Below are positions 6,346-62,478 of a DNA stretch of 64,000 bases, one piece after another. Position 1 is the first letter of the stretch. Each line of letters begins with the position of its first letter. The DNA is from Mustelus asterias (lineage: Eukaryota). The position numbers and the translations under genes were made by a program. The notes below the pieces were generated by a model, which did not search any database, was not told where the DNA came from, and was given only the letters and a program-made list of their open reading frames with translations. Location: positions 108,500,001 to 108,564,000 of the forward strand of contig NC_135808.1 in assembly GCF_964213995.1 (NCBI RefSeq), written 5' to 3'.

Positions 6346-6689
6346 ACAGCACAGCTTCAATACTTCACTGAAGTGTCACTCTCGATTATATACTTAGCAT
6401 TAGGTTTGGGGCTTGAATCCACAATTTCATGACTCGGTGGCAAGTGTAAGTGCTATCACTGAGCCAAAGCTGACATCCTGTTGAGCACTTCTTTTAGGGG
6501 GATTGGGTTTGTTTCTGATTTTTAAAATGGTCCCTGAATAGACCAATTTAAAGGCATCTCTGGCAGTGTTAGTTGAAAGAGGAATTTTGACCAAACAACT
6601 TAGAGAACTTTATGCTGCTCTTCAAATATTTTCATAGGATCCTTTGCATTCAGTTGACAAGCTGATATAGCCTCAATGGATAATAGTTC

Positions 6690-6864
6690 CAACCATTATC
6701 TTGCAATTATGTCTTTGTCTATATATGCCGTGTTTGTGAAACCTACCTCTCCACTCACCTGATGAAGGGCAGTGCTCCGAAAGCTTGTGATTCCAAATAA
6801 ACCTGTTGTACTTTAACCTGGTGTTGTGAGACATCTTACTCTGCCCACCGGTATCTCCACATCA
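6690..6864 (+). mobile_element. Penelope pLTR/3' end fragment
   Basis: ccactcacctgatgaagggcagtgctccgaaagcttgtg...aataaacctgttg...atctccacatca; homologous to 52050-52254. Confidence 0.85.
6755..6790 (+). ncRNA. Minimal type I hammerhead motif (stem II slightly decayed)
   Basis: tcac-CTGATGA-A-gggc agt gctcc-GAAA-gc-TT-gtga. Confidence 0.6.
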
Positions 6865-36734: not shown

Positions 36735-37113
36735 TTATTTTTTTCATGGGATGTGGGTTTCACTGGCAAGGCCAGCATTTGTTGCCAATCCCTAATTGTC
36801 CTTGAATCGAGTGGCTTGCCAGGCCACTTCAGAGGTCAGTTAAGAGTCAACCTCATTGCTCTGGGTCAGACCAGGTAAGGACAGCTTCCTTCCTTAAATA
36901 ACATCAGTGAGCAGATGGGTTGTTACGACAATCGACAATGTTTTGATGGTCATCATTAGATTTTTAATTCCAGAGTTTCTTTATTATTGAATTCAAATTC
37001 CACAAGCTGATAGGACTCGAACTTATGGCGGGATCCGAACCTGCGTCCCCAGAGCATTACCCTGTGTCTCTGGATTACTTGTCCAGTGACAATACCACTA
37101 CACCACCACCTTC
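36735..37113 (-). mobile_element. SINE family B (older copy)
   Basis: Matches family B. Confidence 0.8.
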
Positions 37114-37224
37114 CCCCTGGAAAGATGGTAATACTAGCAAGGAATGTATCATTGGCGTTCCTGATGAACACCTCAGTTTGGAGAAATGTCCATGTGATCT
37201 TGTTGCCATGGCGAGAGAAACTCA

Positions 37225-37914
37225 TGATGTGGAGATGCCGGCTTTGGACTGGGGTAAACACAGTAAGAAGTTTAACAACACCAGGTTAAAGTCCAACAGG
37301 TTTATTTGGTAGCAAAAGCCACACAAGCTTTCGGAGCTGCAAGCCCCTTCTTCAGGTGAGTGGGAATTCTGTTCACAAACAGAGCTTATAAAGACACAGA
37401 CTCAATTTACATGAATAATGGTTGGAATGCGAATACTTACAACTAATCAAGTCTTTAAGAAACAAAACAGCATGAGTGGAGAGAGCATCAAGACAAGCTA
37501 AAAAGATGTGTATTGTCTCCAGACAAGACAGCCAGTGAAACTCTGTGGGGGTTACAAATAGTGGGACATGAACCCAATATCCCGGTTGAGGCCGTCCTCG
37601 TGTGTGCGGAACTTGGCTATCAGTTTCTGCTCAGCGACTCTGCGCCGTCGTGTGTCGCGAAGGCCGCCTTGGAGAACGCTTACCCGAATATCAGAGGCCG
37701 AATGCCCGTGACCGCTGAAGTGCTCCCCAACAGGAAGAGAACAGTCTTGCCTGGTGATTGTCGAGTGGTGTTCATTCATCCGTTGTCGCAGCGTCTGCAT
37801 AGTTTCCCCAATGTACCATGCCTCGGGACATCCTTCCTTGCAGCGTATCAGGTAGACAACGTTGGCCGAGTTGCAAGAGTATGTACCGTGTACCTGGTGG
37901 ATGGTGTTCTCACG
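37225..37914 (-). mobile_element. Penelope-like element, left arm (GIY-YIG endonuclease C-terminal half plus pLTR)
   Basis: YSCNSANVVYLIRCKEGCPEAWYIGETMQTLRQRMNEH...EQKLIAKFRTHEDGLNRD; 3' end ggcatctccacatca. Confidence 0.92.
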
Positions 37915-38107
37915 AATTCATCTCTGTTGCAGAGCTGGGAGTGACTGTGGGATGGTCCCCTTAATGCTATATGTCTGCCAAAAGCGTGGCATACAGTAAA
38001 AGGAATTTCATAAACCACATTTTGATGCTGTTAGTTAGCTCACAATGGGTTTTCTTTAGTTTGATGTTTTATTAATTTAGCTAATTACTGTTTGATCTAT
38101 ATTGATT
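37914..38107 (+). repeat. 194-bp exact direct copy of 38849-39042
   Basis: Identical by eye at an offset of 935 bp. Confidence 0.92.
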
Positions 38108-38515
38108 CGGGTAAGCGTTCTCCAAGGCGGCCTTCGCGACACACGACGGCGCAGAGTCGCTGAGCAGAAACTGATAGCCAAGTTCCGCACACACGAGGAC
38201 GGCCTCAACCGGGATATTGGGTTCATGTCCCACTATTTGTAACCCCCACAGAGTTTCACTGGCTGTCTTGTCTGGAGACAATACACATCTTTTTAGCCTG
38301 TCTTGATGCTCTCTCCACTCATGCTGTTTTGTTTCTTAAAGACTTGATTAGTTGTAAGTATTCGCATTCCAACCATTATTCATGTAAATTGAGTTTGTGT
38401 CTTTATATGCTCTGTTTGTGAACAGAATTCCCACTCACCTGAAGAAGGGGCTTGCAGCTCCGAAAGCTTGTGTGGCTTTTGCTACCGAATAAACCTGTTG
38501 GACTTTAACCTGGTG
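38105..38515 (+). mobile_element. Penelope-like element, right arm (inverted copy of 37279-37689)
   Basis: 411-bp reverse complement with 4 mismatches counted; followed by the TSD gagagaaactca. Confidence 0.92.
38435..38475 (+). ncRNA. Minimal type I hammerhead motif (mirror copy at 37319-37359 on the minus strand)
   Basis: cac-CTGAAGA-A-ggggc ttgca gctcc-GAAA-gc-TT-gtg. Confidence 0.7.
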
Positions 38516-40606
38516 AGAGAAACTCAAACAGGAACCCATTGAGATAAAATGGCAGTTTAACACCTTTCACAGTACTTCACGGGAAAAAAAGACAGCTGCT
38601 TTCAAAAACAAAGAAGCTTGTGCTCTGAAAGAGAAGGGGGGACTATTTTGTGTTACCAATCAAACAGGATGTTTGTAAGAGTTTGATTTCTGTTCAAAAG
38701 AAAGGGAGCAGAACAACTGGGCCCTTTTAGATTTAAGAACTGGAAAATCACCGAGGTATTTCTTGCTGGCAATAATCATATCTGGGAATTTGGGAAGAGT
38801 GGAACAATTGTTGGAGGACACCAAGTTCCAACTTGGCATGGCGGGGAGGAATTCATCTCTGTTGCAGAGCTGGGAGTGACTGTGGGATGGTCCCCTTAAT
38901 GCTATATGTCTGCCAAAAGCGTGGCATACAGTAAAAGGAATTTCATAAACCACATTTTGATGCTGTTAGTTAGCTCACAATGGGTTTTCTTTAGTTTGAT
39001 GTTTTATTAATTTAGCTAATTACTGTTTGATCTATATTGATTTTTAGTTGGTTGTTACAGCAAAAGTCTTAAAAGGTGAAATCTTGTGTATCAGATCTTT
39101 CTCTCAGTTATTGGGAGATTAATCTTTTTAAAAGTTATCCATGGGGGTCATAACAATACAGAAAAAAAGTAAGCAATGATAAGAAACCTGAACCAAAAAT
39201 ATGCAGCTTTATAATAAAAATTAGCACACAAACAGCTGTCAGAAAATCTTCCAATATTTAAAAGAGAGAGAAAAAAAACAAAGCCTGGAGGCTACAACAG
39301 AATAGAAGTAACCCAATAGTCAGCTGAACGCAGGAAAAAACAAGTTCAAAAAATTGCTATTGCACAATTTTAAAAAACTTCTCCAAAGTTGTTACCCTCG
39401 TCTTACCCCATTACATACACCATCTAGATTTATATGGCCCGATCCTATTGAAAATTAAGATCCTGAGGGGATTTGACATGGTGGTGCTGAATCGATGTTT
39501 CTCCTTGTGGGGAAGACTAAGACCAGGGGACGCAGTTTAACATTAAGGGGGTCTCCCATTTAAGATGGAGATGAGAAGAAATTTTTTCTCTCAGACGTTG
39601 TGAGTCTATGGAACTCTCTTCCTTGGTGCAGCGGTTGTGTTGGTAAGGTCCCACAACAAAAGATTCAAAATTCATGTAAATAATTCAAAACTAACTTTCA
39701 TCTTCAAATCCGTGGTTGGCATCTCCAAGTCCCGAGGAACAATGGCCTCCCGTGCAAGCGCCAGCTTTGACAGGTCCGCATGTGCACGGTTGGAGGTTTT
39801 ACATTGGTCAGGCGCATGGGCCTGCTGAGTGTTGGGGCAAGCATACACCTTTGGAGGAATAGTGTTCAACTTCGCACGGCCGAAGAGCTGAAATTGTGCT
39901 TGTAAGTTGATGCTGGAGGGCATTTATTGCGTAGTGTGGTGTGTTTGACCACAGTTTGCAATGAATGAGTTCTTGAAGAGAAGTGAAGAATCCCGCTCTG
40001 ATTCAGATATGGCTGAAAGAACGGAACCTCTGGAGAAAAAACGGTAAGGTTCGTACCCAGACATTACAGCGACAGCAAACGGCCTTTCGAGTTTTGTGGA
40101 CTGATGATGCCGCTTGCCCTGTCCCCGAATGCTTAATCTGTAGGGAGAAGCTTTTGAACGCTGCAATAGCACAAAGTAAGTCAATACAGAACACCAATCG
40201 CTCTTCAGCAAGGATGTACAGTACTTCAAGTGCCTGAGAGAACAAAACATAAAGAAAAATCAACATATGATGGAGTATATGTGGGTTTCTGATAATGTGC
40301 AGGGGGCGAGTTACCTGGTGGCTGGGTTCATGCTGAAATCAAAGTAACTGCTCACCCCCATTGCCGAAACCCTAATTCTGTCAGCATGCAAAATGAGAGC
40401 AGTGTTGGGAACTGACATTGCCAAAATAAATTGACAAAGTTCCTCTTTCTGATACAATCAAACAGCGTATTGACAAAATGCCAGTTGATATTGAACAGGT
40501 GCTTCAGGAGAAATGAAAAATGAGTGGAAAATTTGCCCTGACAATTGATGACTCCACGGATATTAATGGACACTGCCAGCTCTTAGCCAGGATCTGGTAT
40601 GTTGAT

Positions 40607-50697: not shown

Positions 50698-51410
50698 ATA
50701 CCTTTATCAACTCAGCCAGCAGGAGATAGTAGAAGGATCATGGCATGATGGTGGTTATTATTCAAGAAAAAAATACTACTGGAGTAGTTTCTCTCCACAG
50801 ATGCTGCCTGATCTGTTGAGAATTTTCCATTTTAATTTCAGATTTGCATATCTGGAGTATTTTGCTTCTGTAAAAATACAAAATACCTTGAGTGAATGAT
50901 TGTGTTGTTGCATATGCTTATCCAATTTTCCATTCTTTATCGCTATAATATTCGAACTTCCCATTCATTTTCCCCTATTAGTACAAAATAAACACAGTGA
51001 TGCTGCTGAAGTTCCCATGTGCCAACAAATGAGCGGTCTGTAGAGGCTGTTCTCAATGTCAGCTGGAAACCACAGATCTCTTGAGGTCACAGACTTCCTG
51101 CACAGCATTCCAGAGCACTACGCCTGTATTCATTATCAAGGGTGAGTGAACTATATGTCGGGTCACCATGATTCAACTACACACACCACCACTTTTTTGT
51201 AGGAGTGGGAACATGGCTGAATTTACTGCCTACTAAAGCAGAAGTGTTATGCTCAGTTGCGGCAGCCTTTTAAGTGCTGTGGTTGAGACCAATTAACTGA
51301 GAGTATGAAAATGTCCAGGTTCTCTCTGCCAACACTTGCCCCATTCACCATCAGGGATATAACGTAAAGTGCATTTCCTGGTATGACCATCAACACTATT
51401 TTAAGCGTGG

Positions 51411-52254
51411 CAACCTCAAACAGACCATTGTCCGCAGCAAACTACCCAGCCTTCAGGAGAACAGTGACCACGACACCACACAACCCTGCCACAGCAACCA
51501 CTGCAAGACATGCCGGATCATCGACACGGATGCCATCATCTCACGTGAGAACACAATCCACTAGGTACACGGTACATACTCTTGCAACTCGGCCAACATT
51601 GTCTACCTGATACGCTGCAGGAAAGGATGTCCCGAGGCATGGTACATTGGGGAAACCATGCAGATACTACGACAACGGATGAATGAACACCGCTCGACAA
51701 TCATCAGGCAAGACTGTTCTCTTCCTGTTGGGGAGCACTTCAGCGGTCACGGGCATTCGCCCTCTGATATTCGGGTAAGCATTCTCCAAGGCGGCCTTCA
51801 CAACACACGACAGCGCAGAGTCGCTGAGCAGAAACTGATAGCCAGGTTCCGCACACATGAGGACGGCCTCAACCGGATCTTGGGTTCATGTCACACTATC
51901 TGTAACTCCCACAACTTGCCTGGACTTGCAAATTCTCACTAGCTGTCCTGTCTGGAGACAATACACATCTCTAACCTGTGCTAATACTCTCTCCACTCAC
52001 ATTGTCTGTACCTTTAAGACTTGATTAGCTGTAAAGACTCGCATTCCAATCATTATTCATTATTCTGTAAATTAAGTTTGTGTCTTTATATGCCCTGTTT
52101 GCTGTTTATGAGCAGATCTCCCACTCACCTGACGAAGGAGCAGCGCTCCGAAAGCTAGTGGCGTTTGCTACCAAATAAACCTGTTGGACTTTAACCTGGT
52201 GTTGTTAGACTCCTTACTGTGTTTACCCCAGTCCAACGCCGGCATCTCCACATC
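51411..52254 (+). mobile_element. Penelope-like element, 5'-truncated (GIY-YIG endonuclease plus pLTR)
   Basis: PCHSNHCKTC (CCHH linker), NIVYLIRCRKGCPEAWYIGETMQ.LRQRMNEHR; one stop; ends ggcatctccacatc. Confidence 0.92.
52125..52161 (+). ncRNA. Minimal type I hammerhead ribozyme motif
   Basis: tcac-CTGACGA-A-ggagc agc gctcc-GAAA-gc-TA-gtgg. Confidence 0.78.
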
Positions 52255-59042: not shown

Positions 59043-59612
59043 CTAATTCCCCTTGAGAAGGTGATGGTGAGCGGCCTTCTTGAACTCCTGCAACACTTTG
59101 TTGTAGGTGCATCCCATTGCACTGTTAGGGGGGGAGTTCCATGATTTTGACCCAGTGGCAGTGAATGTGATTCCCAGTTAAGATGATATCTTTTCTGTCT
59201 GTGGCCAGACAGATTGAGCGGCTATCTGACTGTCAGGTGGGTAGGCCTATGACACCTGACCACAGCTGGGAGCAAAGGTGGGAACAAGAGATTGGGGCTG
59301 GAGAGGGTTCATGGATGGGAACTGGGGAGGCTATCTCTTGAGGGTGAATAGAGTGATCGAGGGAGGAGAGGAGATCTCTGTAGGCCAGTGCAGGCCGTGG
59401 CTGGAGGGAGGATGGGTTTTGGGAGGAGATCGCAGATCATGGAGGGCACTGAGGGGGCATCAGATCTTGGAAGGATGACATCTGATTGCCATGGAGGTCT
59501 GTTTAATAGAAAGTGGGGCAAAACATTCTGTTCCTCCTGGCCCACAAGCATTACTGCAAAAGCACTTGCCTTTCCCATACAGTACTCCTTGCCTCGCTTT
59601 AGCTGCTGCATA

Positions 59613-59951
59613 TGGGCGGCACGGTAGCACAGTGGTTAGCACTGCTGCTTCTCAGCTCCAGGGACCTGGGTTCGAATCCCGGCTCGGGTCGCTGTCTGTG
59701 TGGAGTTTGCACATTCTCCCTGTGTCTGCGTGGGTTTCCTCCGGGTGCTCCGGTTTCCTCCCACAGTCCAAAGATGTGTGGGCTAGCTTGATTGGCCATT
59801 CTAAATTGCCCCTTAGTGTCCCGGGATGCATAAGTTAGAGGGGTTAGTGGGTAAATATGTAGGGATATGTGGATAGGGCCTGGGTGGGATTGTGGTTGGT
59901 GCAGACTCGATGGGCCGAATGGCCTCTTTCTGCACTGTAGGATTCTATGAT
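59613..59951 (+). mobile_element. HE1-like V-SINE
   Basis: Matches the family. Confidence 0.92.
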
Positions 59952-59952
59952 A

Positions 59953-62478
59953 TAGAGTCACAGAGTAGGAGAGGTTTACAGCATGGAAACAGGCCCTTTG
60001 GCCCAACTTGTCCATGCCGTCCAGCTTTTACCATTAAGCTTGTCCCAATTGCCCGTGTTTGGCCCATATCCCTCTAGAAATCATATCATCATAGAAACCC
60101 TACAGTGCAGAAGGAGGCCATTCGGCCCATCGAGTCTGCACCGACCACAATCCCACCCAGGCCCTACCCCCACATATTTACCTGCTAATCCCTCTAACCT
60201 ACTCATCTCAGGACTCTAAGGGGCAATTTTTAACCTGGCCAATCAACCTAACCCGCACATCTTTGGACTGTGGGAGGAAACCGGAGCACCTGGAGGAAAC
60301 CCACGCAGACACGAGGAGAATGTGCAAACTCCACACAGACAGTGACCCAAGCCGGGAATCGAACACAGGTCCCTGGAGCTGTGAAGCAGCAGTGCTAACC
60401 ACTGTGCTACCGTGCCGCCAATCTATACCAATCTTACCCATGCAACTGTTTAAATGTTTTTTAAAAGACAAAATTGTACCCACCTCTACTACTACCTCTG
60501 GCAGCTCGTTCCAGACACTCACCACCCTCTATGTGAAAACATTGCCCCTCTGGACCCTTTTGTATCTCTCCCCTCTCACCTTAAACCTACGCCCTCTAGT
60601 TTTAGATGTTGACTATCTACCTTATCTATGCCCCTCATTACTTTATAGATCTCTATAAGATCACCCCTAAGCCTCCTACACTCCAGGGAAAAAAGTCCCA
60701 GTCTACCCAACCTCTCTTTATAACTCAAACCATCAAGTCCCGGTAGCATCCTAGTAAATCTTTTCTGGACACTTTCTGGTTTAATAGTATCCTTTCTATA
60801 GTAGAGTGACCAGAACTGTACACAATATTCCAAGTGTGGCCTTACCAATGTCTTGTACAACTTCAACAAGACGTCCCAGCTCCTGTATTCAATGTTCTGA
60901 CCAATGAAACCAAGCATGCCGAATGCCTTCTTCACCACCCTGTCCACCTGTGACTCCACGTTCAAGGAGCTATGAACCTGTACCCCTAGATCTCTTTGTT
61001 CTACAACTTCCCCCAATGCTCTACCATTAACTGAGTAAGTCCTGCCCTGGTTCAATCTACCAAAATGCATCACCTCACATTTATCTAAATTAAACTCCAT
61101 CTGCCATTTATCAGCCCACTGGCCCAATTGATCAAGATCCCAATACAATCCTAGATAACTTCCTTTGCTCTCCACTATGCCACCAATCTTGGTGTCATCT
61201 GCAAACTTATTAACCATGCCTCCTAAATTTTCATCCAAATCATTAATATAAATGACAAATAACAATGGACCCAGCACCGATCCCTGAGGCACACTACTGG
61301 TCACAGGCCTTCAGTTTGAAAAACAACCCTCTACAATCACCCTCTGTCTTCTGTCATCAAGACAATTTTGTATCCAATTGGCTACCTCACCCTGGATCCT
61401 GTGAGATTTAACCTGATGCAATAACCTACCACGTGGTACCTTGTCAACGGCCTTACTAAAATCCATGTAGACAACATCGACTGCACTGCCCTCATCTACC
61501 TTCTTGGTTACTCCTTCAAAAAACTCAATCAAATTCGTGAGACATGATTTTCCATTCACAAAGCCATGCTGACTGTCCCTAATCAGTCTTTGCCTCTCTA
61601 AATGCCTGTAGATCCTGTCTCTCAGAATACCTTCTAACAACTTACCCACTACAGATGTTAGGTTCAGCGGCCTGTAGTTCCCAGGTTTTTCCCTGCGGCC
61701 CATCTTGAACAAAGGCACAATATTTGCCACTCTCCAATCTTCAGGCACCTCACCTGTGGCTGTCGATGATTCAAATATCTCTGCTAGGGGACAGCAATTT
61801 CCTCCCTAGCTTCCCACAACATCCTGGGATACACGTTATCAGGTCCTGGGGATTTATTTACCTTGATGCACTTTAAGACTTCCAGCACCTCCTTCTCTGT
61901 AATATGTACACTTCTCAAGATATCACAATTTATTTCCCCAATTTCTCTGACATCCATGCCTTTCTCAACAGTAAATACTGATGAGAAATATTCATTTAGG
62001 ATCTCACCCATTACTTGTGGATCTGCGCATAGATGACCTTGTTGAGAGGCCCTATTCACTCTCTAATTACTCTTTTGCCCTTTATGTATTTGTAGAAGCT
62101 CTTTAGATTCTCCTTTGACTAATCTGCCAAAGAAATCGTGTCCCCTGTTTGCCCTCCTGATTTCTCTCTTAACTCTACTCCGACACCCTCTAAACTCTTC
62201 AAGGGATCCACTTGATCCCAGCTGCCTATGTATGTCATATGCCTCCTTCTTCTTTTTGACCAGGGCTTCAATATCTCGAGTCATCCAGAGTTCCCAACTT
62301 CTACCAGCCTTGCCCTTCACTCTAAAAGGAATGTTCTTACCCTGAACTCTGATTAACACACTTTGAGAGCCTCCCACTTATCAGAGGTCCCTTTGCCTGC
62401 CAACAGACTCCCCCAATCAATTTTTGAAAGTTCCTGCCTAATACCATTGAAATTAGGCTTGCCCCAGTTTAGAACTTA
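59953..62478 (-). mobile_element. CR1 LINE, 5'-truncated and frameshifted, split by a V-SINE in its 3' region
   Basis: ORFs 62063-62377, 61784-62059, 61311-61748 and 60576-61304 are collinear ORF2 pieces (PQGSVLGP, FADD). Confidence 0.92.
60077..60419 (-). mobile_element. HE1-like V-SINE, young
   Basis: Matches the family; flanked by tcta on both sides (approximate TSD). Confidence 0.92.

Follow-up and report, generated by a model that had tools for sequence, protein, structure and literature searches.

A piece of local host DNA was found captured between the two inverted arms of a Penelope-like element (PLE) insertion in a 64,000-nt stretch of the genome of Mustelus asterias (assembly GCF_964213995.1, contig NC_135808.1, positions 108,500,001 to 108,564,000; genome size 3.68 Gb), hereafter referred to as the window, and captures of the same kind were found at four further insertions of this element family. 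Local capture is uncommon but recurrent in the family and is known in kind from LINE-1. The inverted pair of arms is the default product of the family and is not the unusual part of the structure.

The focal insertion (coordinates in Table 1) is bounded by exact copies of the target-site duplication (TSD) GAGAGAAACTCA, which do not extend further and are found at just these two places across the window. The inverted arms, A and B, correspond to each other over 411 nt (37279-37689 and 38105-38515) with 4 mismatches, base 38515 being common to arm B and the right TSD, and their 5' ends are asymmetric, lying at element position -688 in arm A and -463 in arm B. The spacer between the arms is identical at 194/194 positions to a source stretch beginning 322 nt past the right TSD, with overlaps of G at 37914 and ATT at 38105-38107 at its junctions. 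An earlier, sequence-only reading had described this fold-back structure, and every coordinate claimed in it, for the TSD, the arms, the spacer and the two overlaps, was reproduced.

The same reading had proposed that the spacer was captured locally, and the genome-wide comparison agrees with this, as the spacer is 100% identical solely to its local source, whereas other copies of the old repeat in which the source lies are 65-79% identical (best 40 of 568 candidates scored). A composite element, in which arms and spacer travel together from a different locus, would place the spacer elsewhere in the genome; no second place with the spacer occurs among these best 40 candidates, the captured pieces of the four other loci (those searched) each match their own neighbourhood best and nothing was found in its favour, so that this explanation hardly deserves credence. 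Within the source stretch, 6 listed sites are different in a related organism, while the focal spacer equals the source of its own genome, and the copy is thus recent.

The family was surveyed in three samples, comprising 98 of the first 100 matches to the element tail on contig C1, 27/30 matches from a second pattern and 20 from a third. Those omitted were 2/100 matches of the first sample lying less than 3 kb from the next, L151 (the same as L149) and L156 and L157 (duplicates of L155). L075 and L169 were left out of the end-coincidence test and L128 additionally out of the insert tests, and 39 length-selected copies were kept out of the rate estimates. The flanks were limited (1.5 kb per side in the second set) and captures can therefore be missed. 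An inverted, tail-less second arm was present in 103/145 sampled copies (78/98 in the unbiased set, 14/27 and 11/20 in the other two). Exact TSDs of at least 10 nt flank 79/92 of the inverted copies of the first two samples, 54 of these TSDs being 12-13 nt long. The second arm lacks 29-42 nt of tail in 79/93 copies (a count that still includes L169), the shortfall of 54 nt in arm B being an outlier. Such an architecture has already been described for PLEs bearing an endonuclease (EN+ PLEs), whose insertions carry an inverted 5'-truncated copy, a one-sided tail of 30-40 nt and a TSD (PMC8557442, PMC3846280; statements on published work, here and below, refer to the accessible parts of the papers cited). 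The 588-nt spacer of L169 proved to be a separate, older PLE pair, and this copy was reclassed as single. In the course of the survey distinct insertions were also observed at the same target sequence in host repeats, with the same TSD or flank and different arm lengths (L053 and L094; L004, L077 and L191), which suggests target hotspots. Three copies without a second arm (L063, L078 and L147) have patchwork fillers of 16-21 nt, in which sequence from close by is repeated, at the boundary of TSD and element.

Local captures were identified in 4/103 inverted copies (95% interval 1.1-9.7%) and 4/145 copies overall, the focal locus being additional; recurrence of this kind had been named beforehand as the sign of a general mechanism. 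The captured pieces of the four loci are 88-238 nt long and were copied, in direct or inverted orientation, from either flank at distances of 24-640 nt. They include 238 nt in L062 (96.6% identity, tail-less side, inverted, about 320 nt away, with a tandem-repeat patch in addition), 140 nt inverted and 110 nt direct in L148 (tail side, 496 and about 180 nt away), 88 nt in L158 (tail side, direct, 638 nt away) and 189 nt in L170 (tail-less side, inverted, 24 nt away). Each piece searched finds its best match in the genome at the local flank, which is the only match for L158 and for the 140-nt piece of L148; in L062 the flank is 98% identical against at most 86% for the next genomic copies, and in L170 98% against 94-97%. 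Summed over the five captures, spacer and source show 16 differences in 959 nt and the two arms 8 in 757 nt, so that the captures look as old as their insertions. Shorter inserts are also present at 13 junctions (9-47 nt), five of them copied from within 40 nt of the junction with matches better than 95% of controls.

Several other candidates were rejected. The 225-nt insert of L047 (95.6% identical to the flank 131 nt away) is ambiguous and was omitted as a sixth capture, since other copies of the young long interspersed element (LINE) from which it derives match at 96-98%. The gaps of L075, L089, L020, L125, L128 and L180 contain element sequence (the 5' open reading frame (ORF) or a subfamily segment), and the inserts of L049, L018 and L187 contain short interspersed elements (SINEs) without a close local source.

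The manner in which the two arms arise could be approached through the positions of their ends. The inner ends of the arms lie within 10 nt of each other in 50/84 copies, against a permutation mean of 8.7 and a maximum of 20 in 20,000 permutations (Spearman 0.81), and for arms longer than 160 nt they lie within 20 nt in 13/29, against a permutation mean of 2.0. In 19/84 copies the tail-less arm exceeds the tailed one by more than 10 nt, and in 15/84 it is the shorter. Divergence between the arms of one locus is 1.3%, as compared to 3.7% between loci. Among 41 strictly scorable joins, 27 have no insert, and an overlap of 2-6 nt is seen in 12 of these 27 (p 4e-4), among which are zero-loop palindromes (GAATTC and CATG). 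Since the inner ends coincide and the longer arm may be the tailed or the tail-less one, priming on one RNA by both cut strands is favoured, with the two cDNA ends joined afterwards; the arms are probably two target-primed cDNAs, made from one RNA and annealed end to end, and we infer from the arm lengths that both are independent cDNAs. The proposal of the sequence-only reading that both strands of one staggered cut act as primers fits the TSD mode of 12-13 nt, the variable arm lengths and the nicking and extension of both strands reported in vitro for a relative (PMC11167929). Extra internal element fragments, that is, template switches within the element, were observed at some junctions (L083, L132, L135, L041, L026 and L046).

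Priming at the tail end leaves a trace of its own. Microhomology of at least 2 nt between the target and the continuation of the RNA is present in 32/76 copies, with 15.6% expected (p 3e-8). In tandem copies the ORF start directly follows the tail, and reverse transcription would therefore start at the tail/ORF boundary. At the focal locus the first 3 nt (TGA) of the TSD on the minus strand extend the element sequence, the tail (...CACATC) followed by ATGA corresponding to the ORF start of the tandem copies L089 and L125, which points to priming microhomology at this locus too. The second priming site of the focal insertion shows 1 nt of exact pairing, or 5 nt with one mismatch.

The coinciding inner ends, and the rare alleles that the arms share (28/65), would also be expected if one arm copies the other, by a single-primed cDNA that folds back and copies itself or by an antisense RNA that primes itself (Arkhipova 2013), with a detour onto the flank in between; palindromic junctions have been interpreted as self-priming (PMC3846280), and junctions onto cDNA or nearby target DNA have been reported for R2 (PMC11371274). 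A single snap-back, however, cannot yield a tail-less arm that reaches further 5' than the tailed arm, as is seen in the 19 copies mentioned above, nor can zero-loop palindromic joins form as hairpins in cis. The tail-end microhomology with the sense RNA continuation and the extension of both strands by a PLE protein in vitro (PMC11167929) speak against it as well, and we regard single-primer synthesis as unlikely.

The course of events that we consider probable is thus a staggered cut with twin priming, after which the cDNAs are joined to each other, now and then by way of a templated detour made during insertion. The GIY-YIG endonuclease domain would make staggered nicks about 12 nt apart, as the TSD geometry implies and as nicking of both strands by a relative in vitro makes plausible. 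Each 3' overhang would then prime reverse transcription of the sense RNA of the element, one at the tail/ORF-start boundary with TGA pairing and the other 54 nt inside, giving two cDNAs of the same polarity that point at each other. Their free ends would usually anneal by 0-6 nt of microhomology, followed by fill-in. In the focal case no direct join would have occurred; instead resection would have laid bare the minus strand of the right flank, on which the arm-A cDNA (plus strand) would have primed 322 nt beyond the other cut end, 194 nt being copied before a switch to the arm-B cDNA end at ATT. This is the simplest path, although the orientation alone is no proof of it.

As to the polymerase of the detour, host end-joining or repair synthesis of the synthesis-dependent strand annealing (SDSA) type on the resected or unwound flank is in our judgement somewhat the better candidate; the reverse transcriptase (RT) of the element is a weaker one, and another enzyme seems a minor prospect. 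The earlier proposal that the cDNA ends were bridged by an RT template jump or by polymerase-theta-like repair holds in that a detour onto flanking DNA is indicated; both enzymes are candidates, and the short length typical of polymerase theta is not seen. As expected of that enzyme, the template of the focal insert lies beside the break and the switch points show microhomology; at 194 nt the insert falls outside the typical 3-10 nt, a range which just the short junction inserts approach.

The capture may instead have been made by later repair, the near-perfect palindrome having landed first; cleavage of a cruciform or hairpin would then have broken it in the middle, one arm would have been shortened and nearby DNA used as a patch. 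Long palindromes are prone to breakage, and the asymmetric focal arms as well as the identity of the focal spacer to its source, beside 4 differences between the arms, would be in keeping with such a history. Against this, the spacer-source divergence of the five captures is not below that of the arms, and the arms of L062, L158 and L170 end within 2 nt of each other at common 5'-end positions of the family, with no loss. Asymmetric arms are, moreover, common even without a spacer. Later repair appears rather unlikely as the general explanation of the captures; at the focal locus, where the spacer shows no differences, the capture may have been a later event.

A number of observations weigh against capture at the time of insertion by a detour between two cDNAs. 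For the focal spacer, 0 differences are observed where about 1.9 are expected (P 0.15). The third sample yielded 0 captures in 11 inverted copies, and 8/13 short inserts have a weak or no nearby source (four borderline or weak, four none). The expectation that inserts would form chiefly where the two cDNAs stop at one and the same base was not supported (7/16 against 19/67, p 0.25). The pieces of L148, which come from one flank in both orientations, are not explained by a single resected strand, and captures of 88-238 nt far exceed the inserts typical of polymerase theta (PMC9962433). Priming microhomology of at least 2 nt at the second arm is weak (10/37, p 0.053). In L187 a 374-nt SINE, with no match in the fetched flanks, lies between two arms both ending at -319, and may be a later insertion or the result of an RT jump to SINE RNA.

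Contigs were compared under a bridging rule by which a junction must be crossed by 31 letters. The insertion is not covered from end to end by any contig, and none is shown to bridge the 37914 junction. A further point against the detour is that in X19 the contig over the source is unbroken at a depth of 24.7 and the spacer bin is just 9.6 deep. The low spacer depth could reflect heterozygosity or assembler pruning and is not positive support. These are also the grounds for suspecting that the spacer or the second arm was mis-joined through the inverted repeat during assembly. Contigs with zero differences nevertheless run over the left TSD (X19, 37086-37249, 25 nt into arm A), the right TSD (X19, 38489-39500, 26 nt into arm B) and the 38107 junction (X21, a second sample, 37950-38117, 10 nt into arm B), each falling short of the 31-letter rule. 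The read check proposed in the sequence-only reading is thus answered in part, three junctions being crossed over short lengths and neither the 37914 junction nor the full span being covered. With the arms differing at 4 sites, the TSD exact and four independent loci showing the same kind of structure, an artefact is very improbable. An empty allele is not among the listed joints of the contig comparison. The match of contig X3, from a related organism, begins at 38511, its first 100 letters not aligned to arm B, which hints that the insertion is absent from that organism, although a join to the left flank is not seen.

Table 1. Features of the focal insertion, numbered from the first letter of the window
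Feature	Position	Strand	Remarks
Left TSD GAGAGAAACTCA	37213..37224	+	Its + strand 3' end would prime arm A cDNA; exact repeat, family mode 12-13 nt
Arm A, 5'-truncated 3' end of young, apparently Neptune-like PLE with complete tail	37225..37914	-	98-99% identity to many genomic copies
Minimal type-I hammerhead motif, arm A (CUGAAGA, stem II, GAAA, palindromic AGCU)	37322..37358	-	Predicted cut 37325/37324
TATA-like motif	37385..37392	-	The 5' ends clustered at -133..-143 lie about 25-30 nt downstream; putative promoter role
C-terminal 120 codons of ORF and stop, GIY-YIG endonuclease domain	37552..37914	-	PF01541 match
Captured downstream target DNA, 194 nt	37914..38107	+	190 nt non-element plus G and ATT overlaps; orientation same as source
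Arm B, second copy in inverted orientation and without tail (element -463 to -53)	38105..38515	+	4 mismatches to arm A in 411 nt
Minimal hammerhead motif, arm B	38436..38472	+	Predicted cut 38469/38470
Right TSD	38515..38526	+	Exact repeat of left TSD
Source of captured piece, within old dispersed repeat	38849..39042	+	322 nt past right TSD; other repeat copies 65-79% identical

The element family is young and abundant, the 40 scored matches to arm A in the genome being 98-100% identical and a 37-nt tail pattern having 26,727 exact matches genome-wide. The 120 aa encoded by arm A have a GIY-YIG domain (Pfam PF01541, E 4.5e-5) at their end, with a cysteine pair visible between the VVY and YIG motifs of the endonuclease. 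The near-full copy L047 has an ORF of 782 aa, with RVT_1 (E 1.7e-9) upstream and the same endonuclease sequence at its end. Copy L050 carries a Cys-rich linker, PCHSNLCKTC, with what we take to be the cysteine spacing of the Neptune clade. A linker of this type has been named as a feature of that clade (PMC8557442), and on the basis of the motif the element looks Neptune-like rather than Penelope/Poseidon. By every sequence feature checked (GIY-YIG domain, ORF joining RT and endonuclease, inverted tail-less arm with TSD, hammerhead motif) the element is placed among the EN+ PLEs; GIY-YIG and RT in one ORF, the inverted tail-less arm, the TSD and a minimal hammerhead near the 3' end are shared with Penelope/Poseidon, Neptune, Nematis and Naiad (PMC8557442, PMC3846280). 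Two older copies of the family, 88% and 74-78% identical and with no inverted arm detected, were observed in the window at 51410-52254 and 6687-6864, respectively. An imperfect palindrome of 811 nt (82%) at 59612-60422 consists of two inverted copies of a SINE-like repeat of about 330 nt.

A minimal type-I hammerhead motif lies 93-135 nt from the element end and both focal arms carry a copy of it. The sequence-only reading also envisaged a dsRNA stem of about 410 bp formed by the arms, which would hypothetically sequester the hammerhead. The search was performed by motif, using the core and the palindromic AGCU with a descriptor following PMC4209133. In older copies CAC/GUG in stem I is changed to CAU/AUG, a covariation. 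No Rfam family reached the gathering score in the window and no hammerhead was found by E-value, while minimum free energy folding of the element 3' end does not surpass that of shuffles (z 0.19); the motif and the covariation are thus left to carry the putative assignment.

The 5' ends of the tailed arms were observed to cluster at -90 to -99, at and just 3' of the predicted hammerhead cut, in 19/125 copies (L053-L180), the neighbouring 10-nt bins holding 7, 1, 3 and 4 ends; the cluster is also present in copies without a second arm. It may represent run-off from self-cleaved RNA in vivo or stalling of the RT at a structure; such run-off was not detected for the Poseidon element PAc in the accessible parts of the report (PMC11167929). 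A second cluster at -130 to -149 (20/125 of the same copies) lies 25-30 nt downstream of the TATA-like motif, over an initiator-like CCACTCA, and its position in the sequence suggests run-off from a transcription start. In three independent insertions (L076, L118 and L185) both arms end at -605 with differing junction overlaps, which suggests a discrete RNA 5' end in one subfamily.

Comparison with known systems places the captures among related phenomena. Templated insertion of flanking DNA is already known for LINE-1 and R2. Studies of LINE-1 report 22 cases, usually shorter than 250 bp and from within 15 bp of the site (10.1101/2024.08.27.596794), and three cases (PMC11702581). LINE-1 twin priming resembles the present family in that two target-primed cDNAs are joined by microhomology with an occasional copy of genomic DNA near the site, for which an SDSA-like model has been proposed. 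It differs in that the second primer of LINE-1 lands upstream of the first cDNA and the arms are mostly non-overlapping, whereas the starts in the focal PLE lie within about 55 nt of each other and the same stretch of RNA is copied; moreover, most insertions here are twin-primed, and the templates are found at distances of 24-640 nt. In R2 the 3' end of the cDNA likewise primes DNA synthesis, with the cDNA itself or target DNA close by as template, before it is joined; there is one cDNA instead of two (PMC11371274). Polymerase-theta insertions (PMC9962433) are similar in their short, iterative junction inserts and differ in length from the captures.

The closest experimental counterpart is target-primed reverse transcription by PAc in vitro (PMC11167929), in which both strands are nicked and extended, two RT starts define the tail and initiation takes place near the ORF start. 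PAc belongs to a different clade and initiates without target homology, whereas the tail end of the focal family has 2-5 nt of microhomology; the accessible parts of that study do not address the joining of the two cDNAs. Published PLEs show adjacent inverted copies and host DNA between pseudo-long terminal repeats (pLTRs), with no spacer traced to its own flank and no statistics on the coincidence of inner ends in the portions available (PMC8557442, PMC3846280). The literature searched yielded no account of flanking DNA captured locally between the inverted arms of a PLE, older Penelope papers probably lying outside its coverage and supplements not being covered. New here are the coupling between the two cDNA ends and the demonstration, with its rate, of local capture within a family of PLEs.

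The origin of the inverted and tail structures of PLEs is stated as open in PMC8557442 and PMC11167929. More tentatively than the insertion-time detour itself, coupled and symmetric twin priming may be put forward as the default of the family: a dimer would prime both cut strands on one RNA, both cDNAs would reach the same RNA 5' end (a transcription start, a hammerhead cut or a truncation), the host would join the ends, and 1-10% of inverted events would borrow 90-240 nt from within about 650 nt of the cut. If true, this would explain the long-unexplained architecture of inverted arms plus tail in Penelope, provide signatures for the existing in vitro system, and imply that the genome holds small local duplications numbering from several hundred to about a thousand; the tail matches multiplied by the sampled rates give roughly 550-740 (point estimates with wide intervals). 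The survey offers testable constraints on PLE integration, namely a staggered cut of 12-13 nt, two cDNAs that end together with either being the longer at times, joining by microhomology and occasional detours onto the flank. The focal copy on its own is a dead, truncated insertion whose spacer is a repair scar, without evident function, of a type known from LINE-1; the recurrence of such scars hints at how these elements finish inserting.

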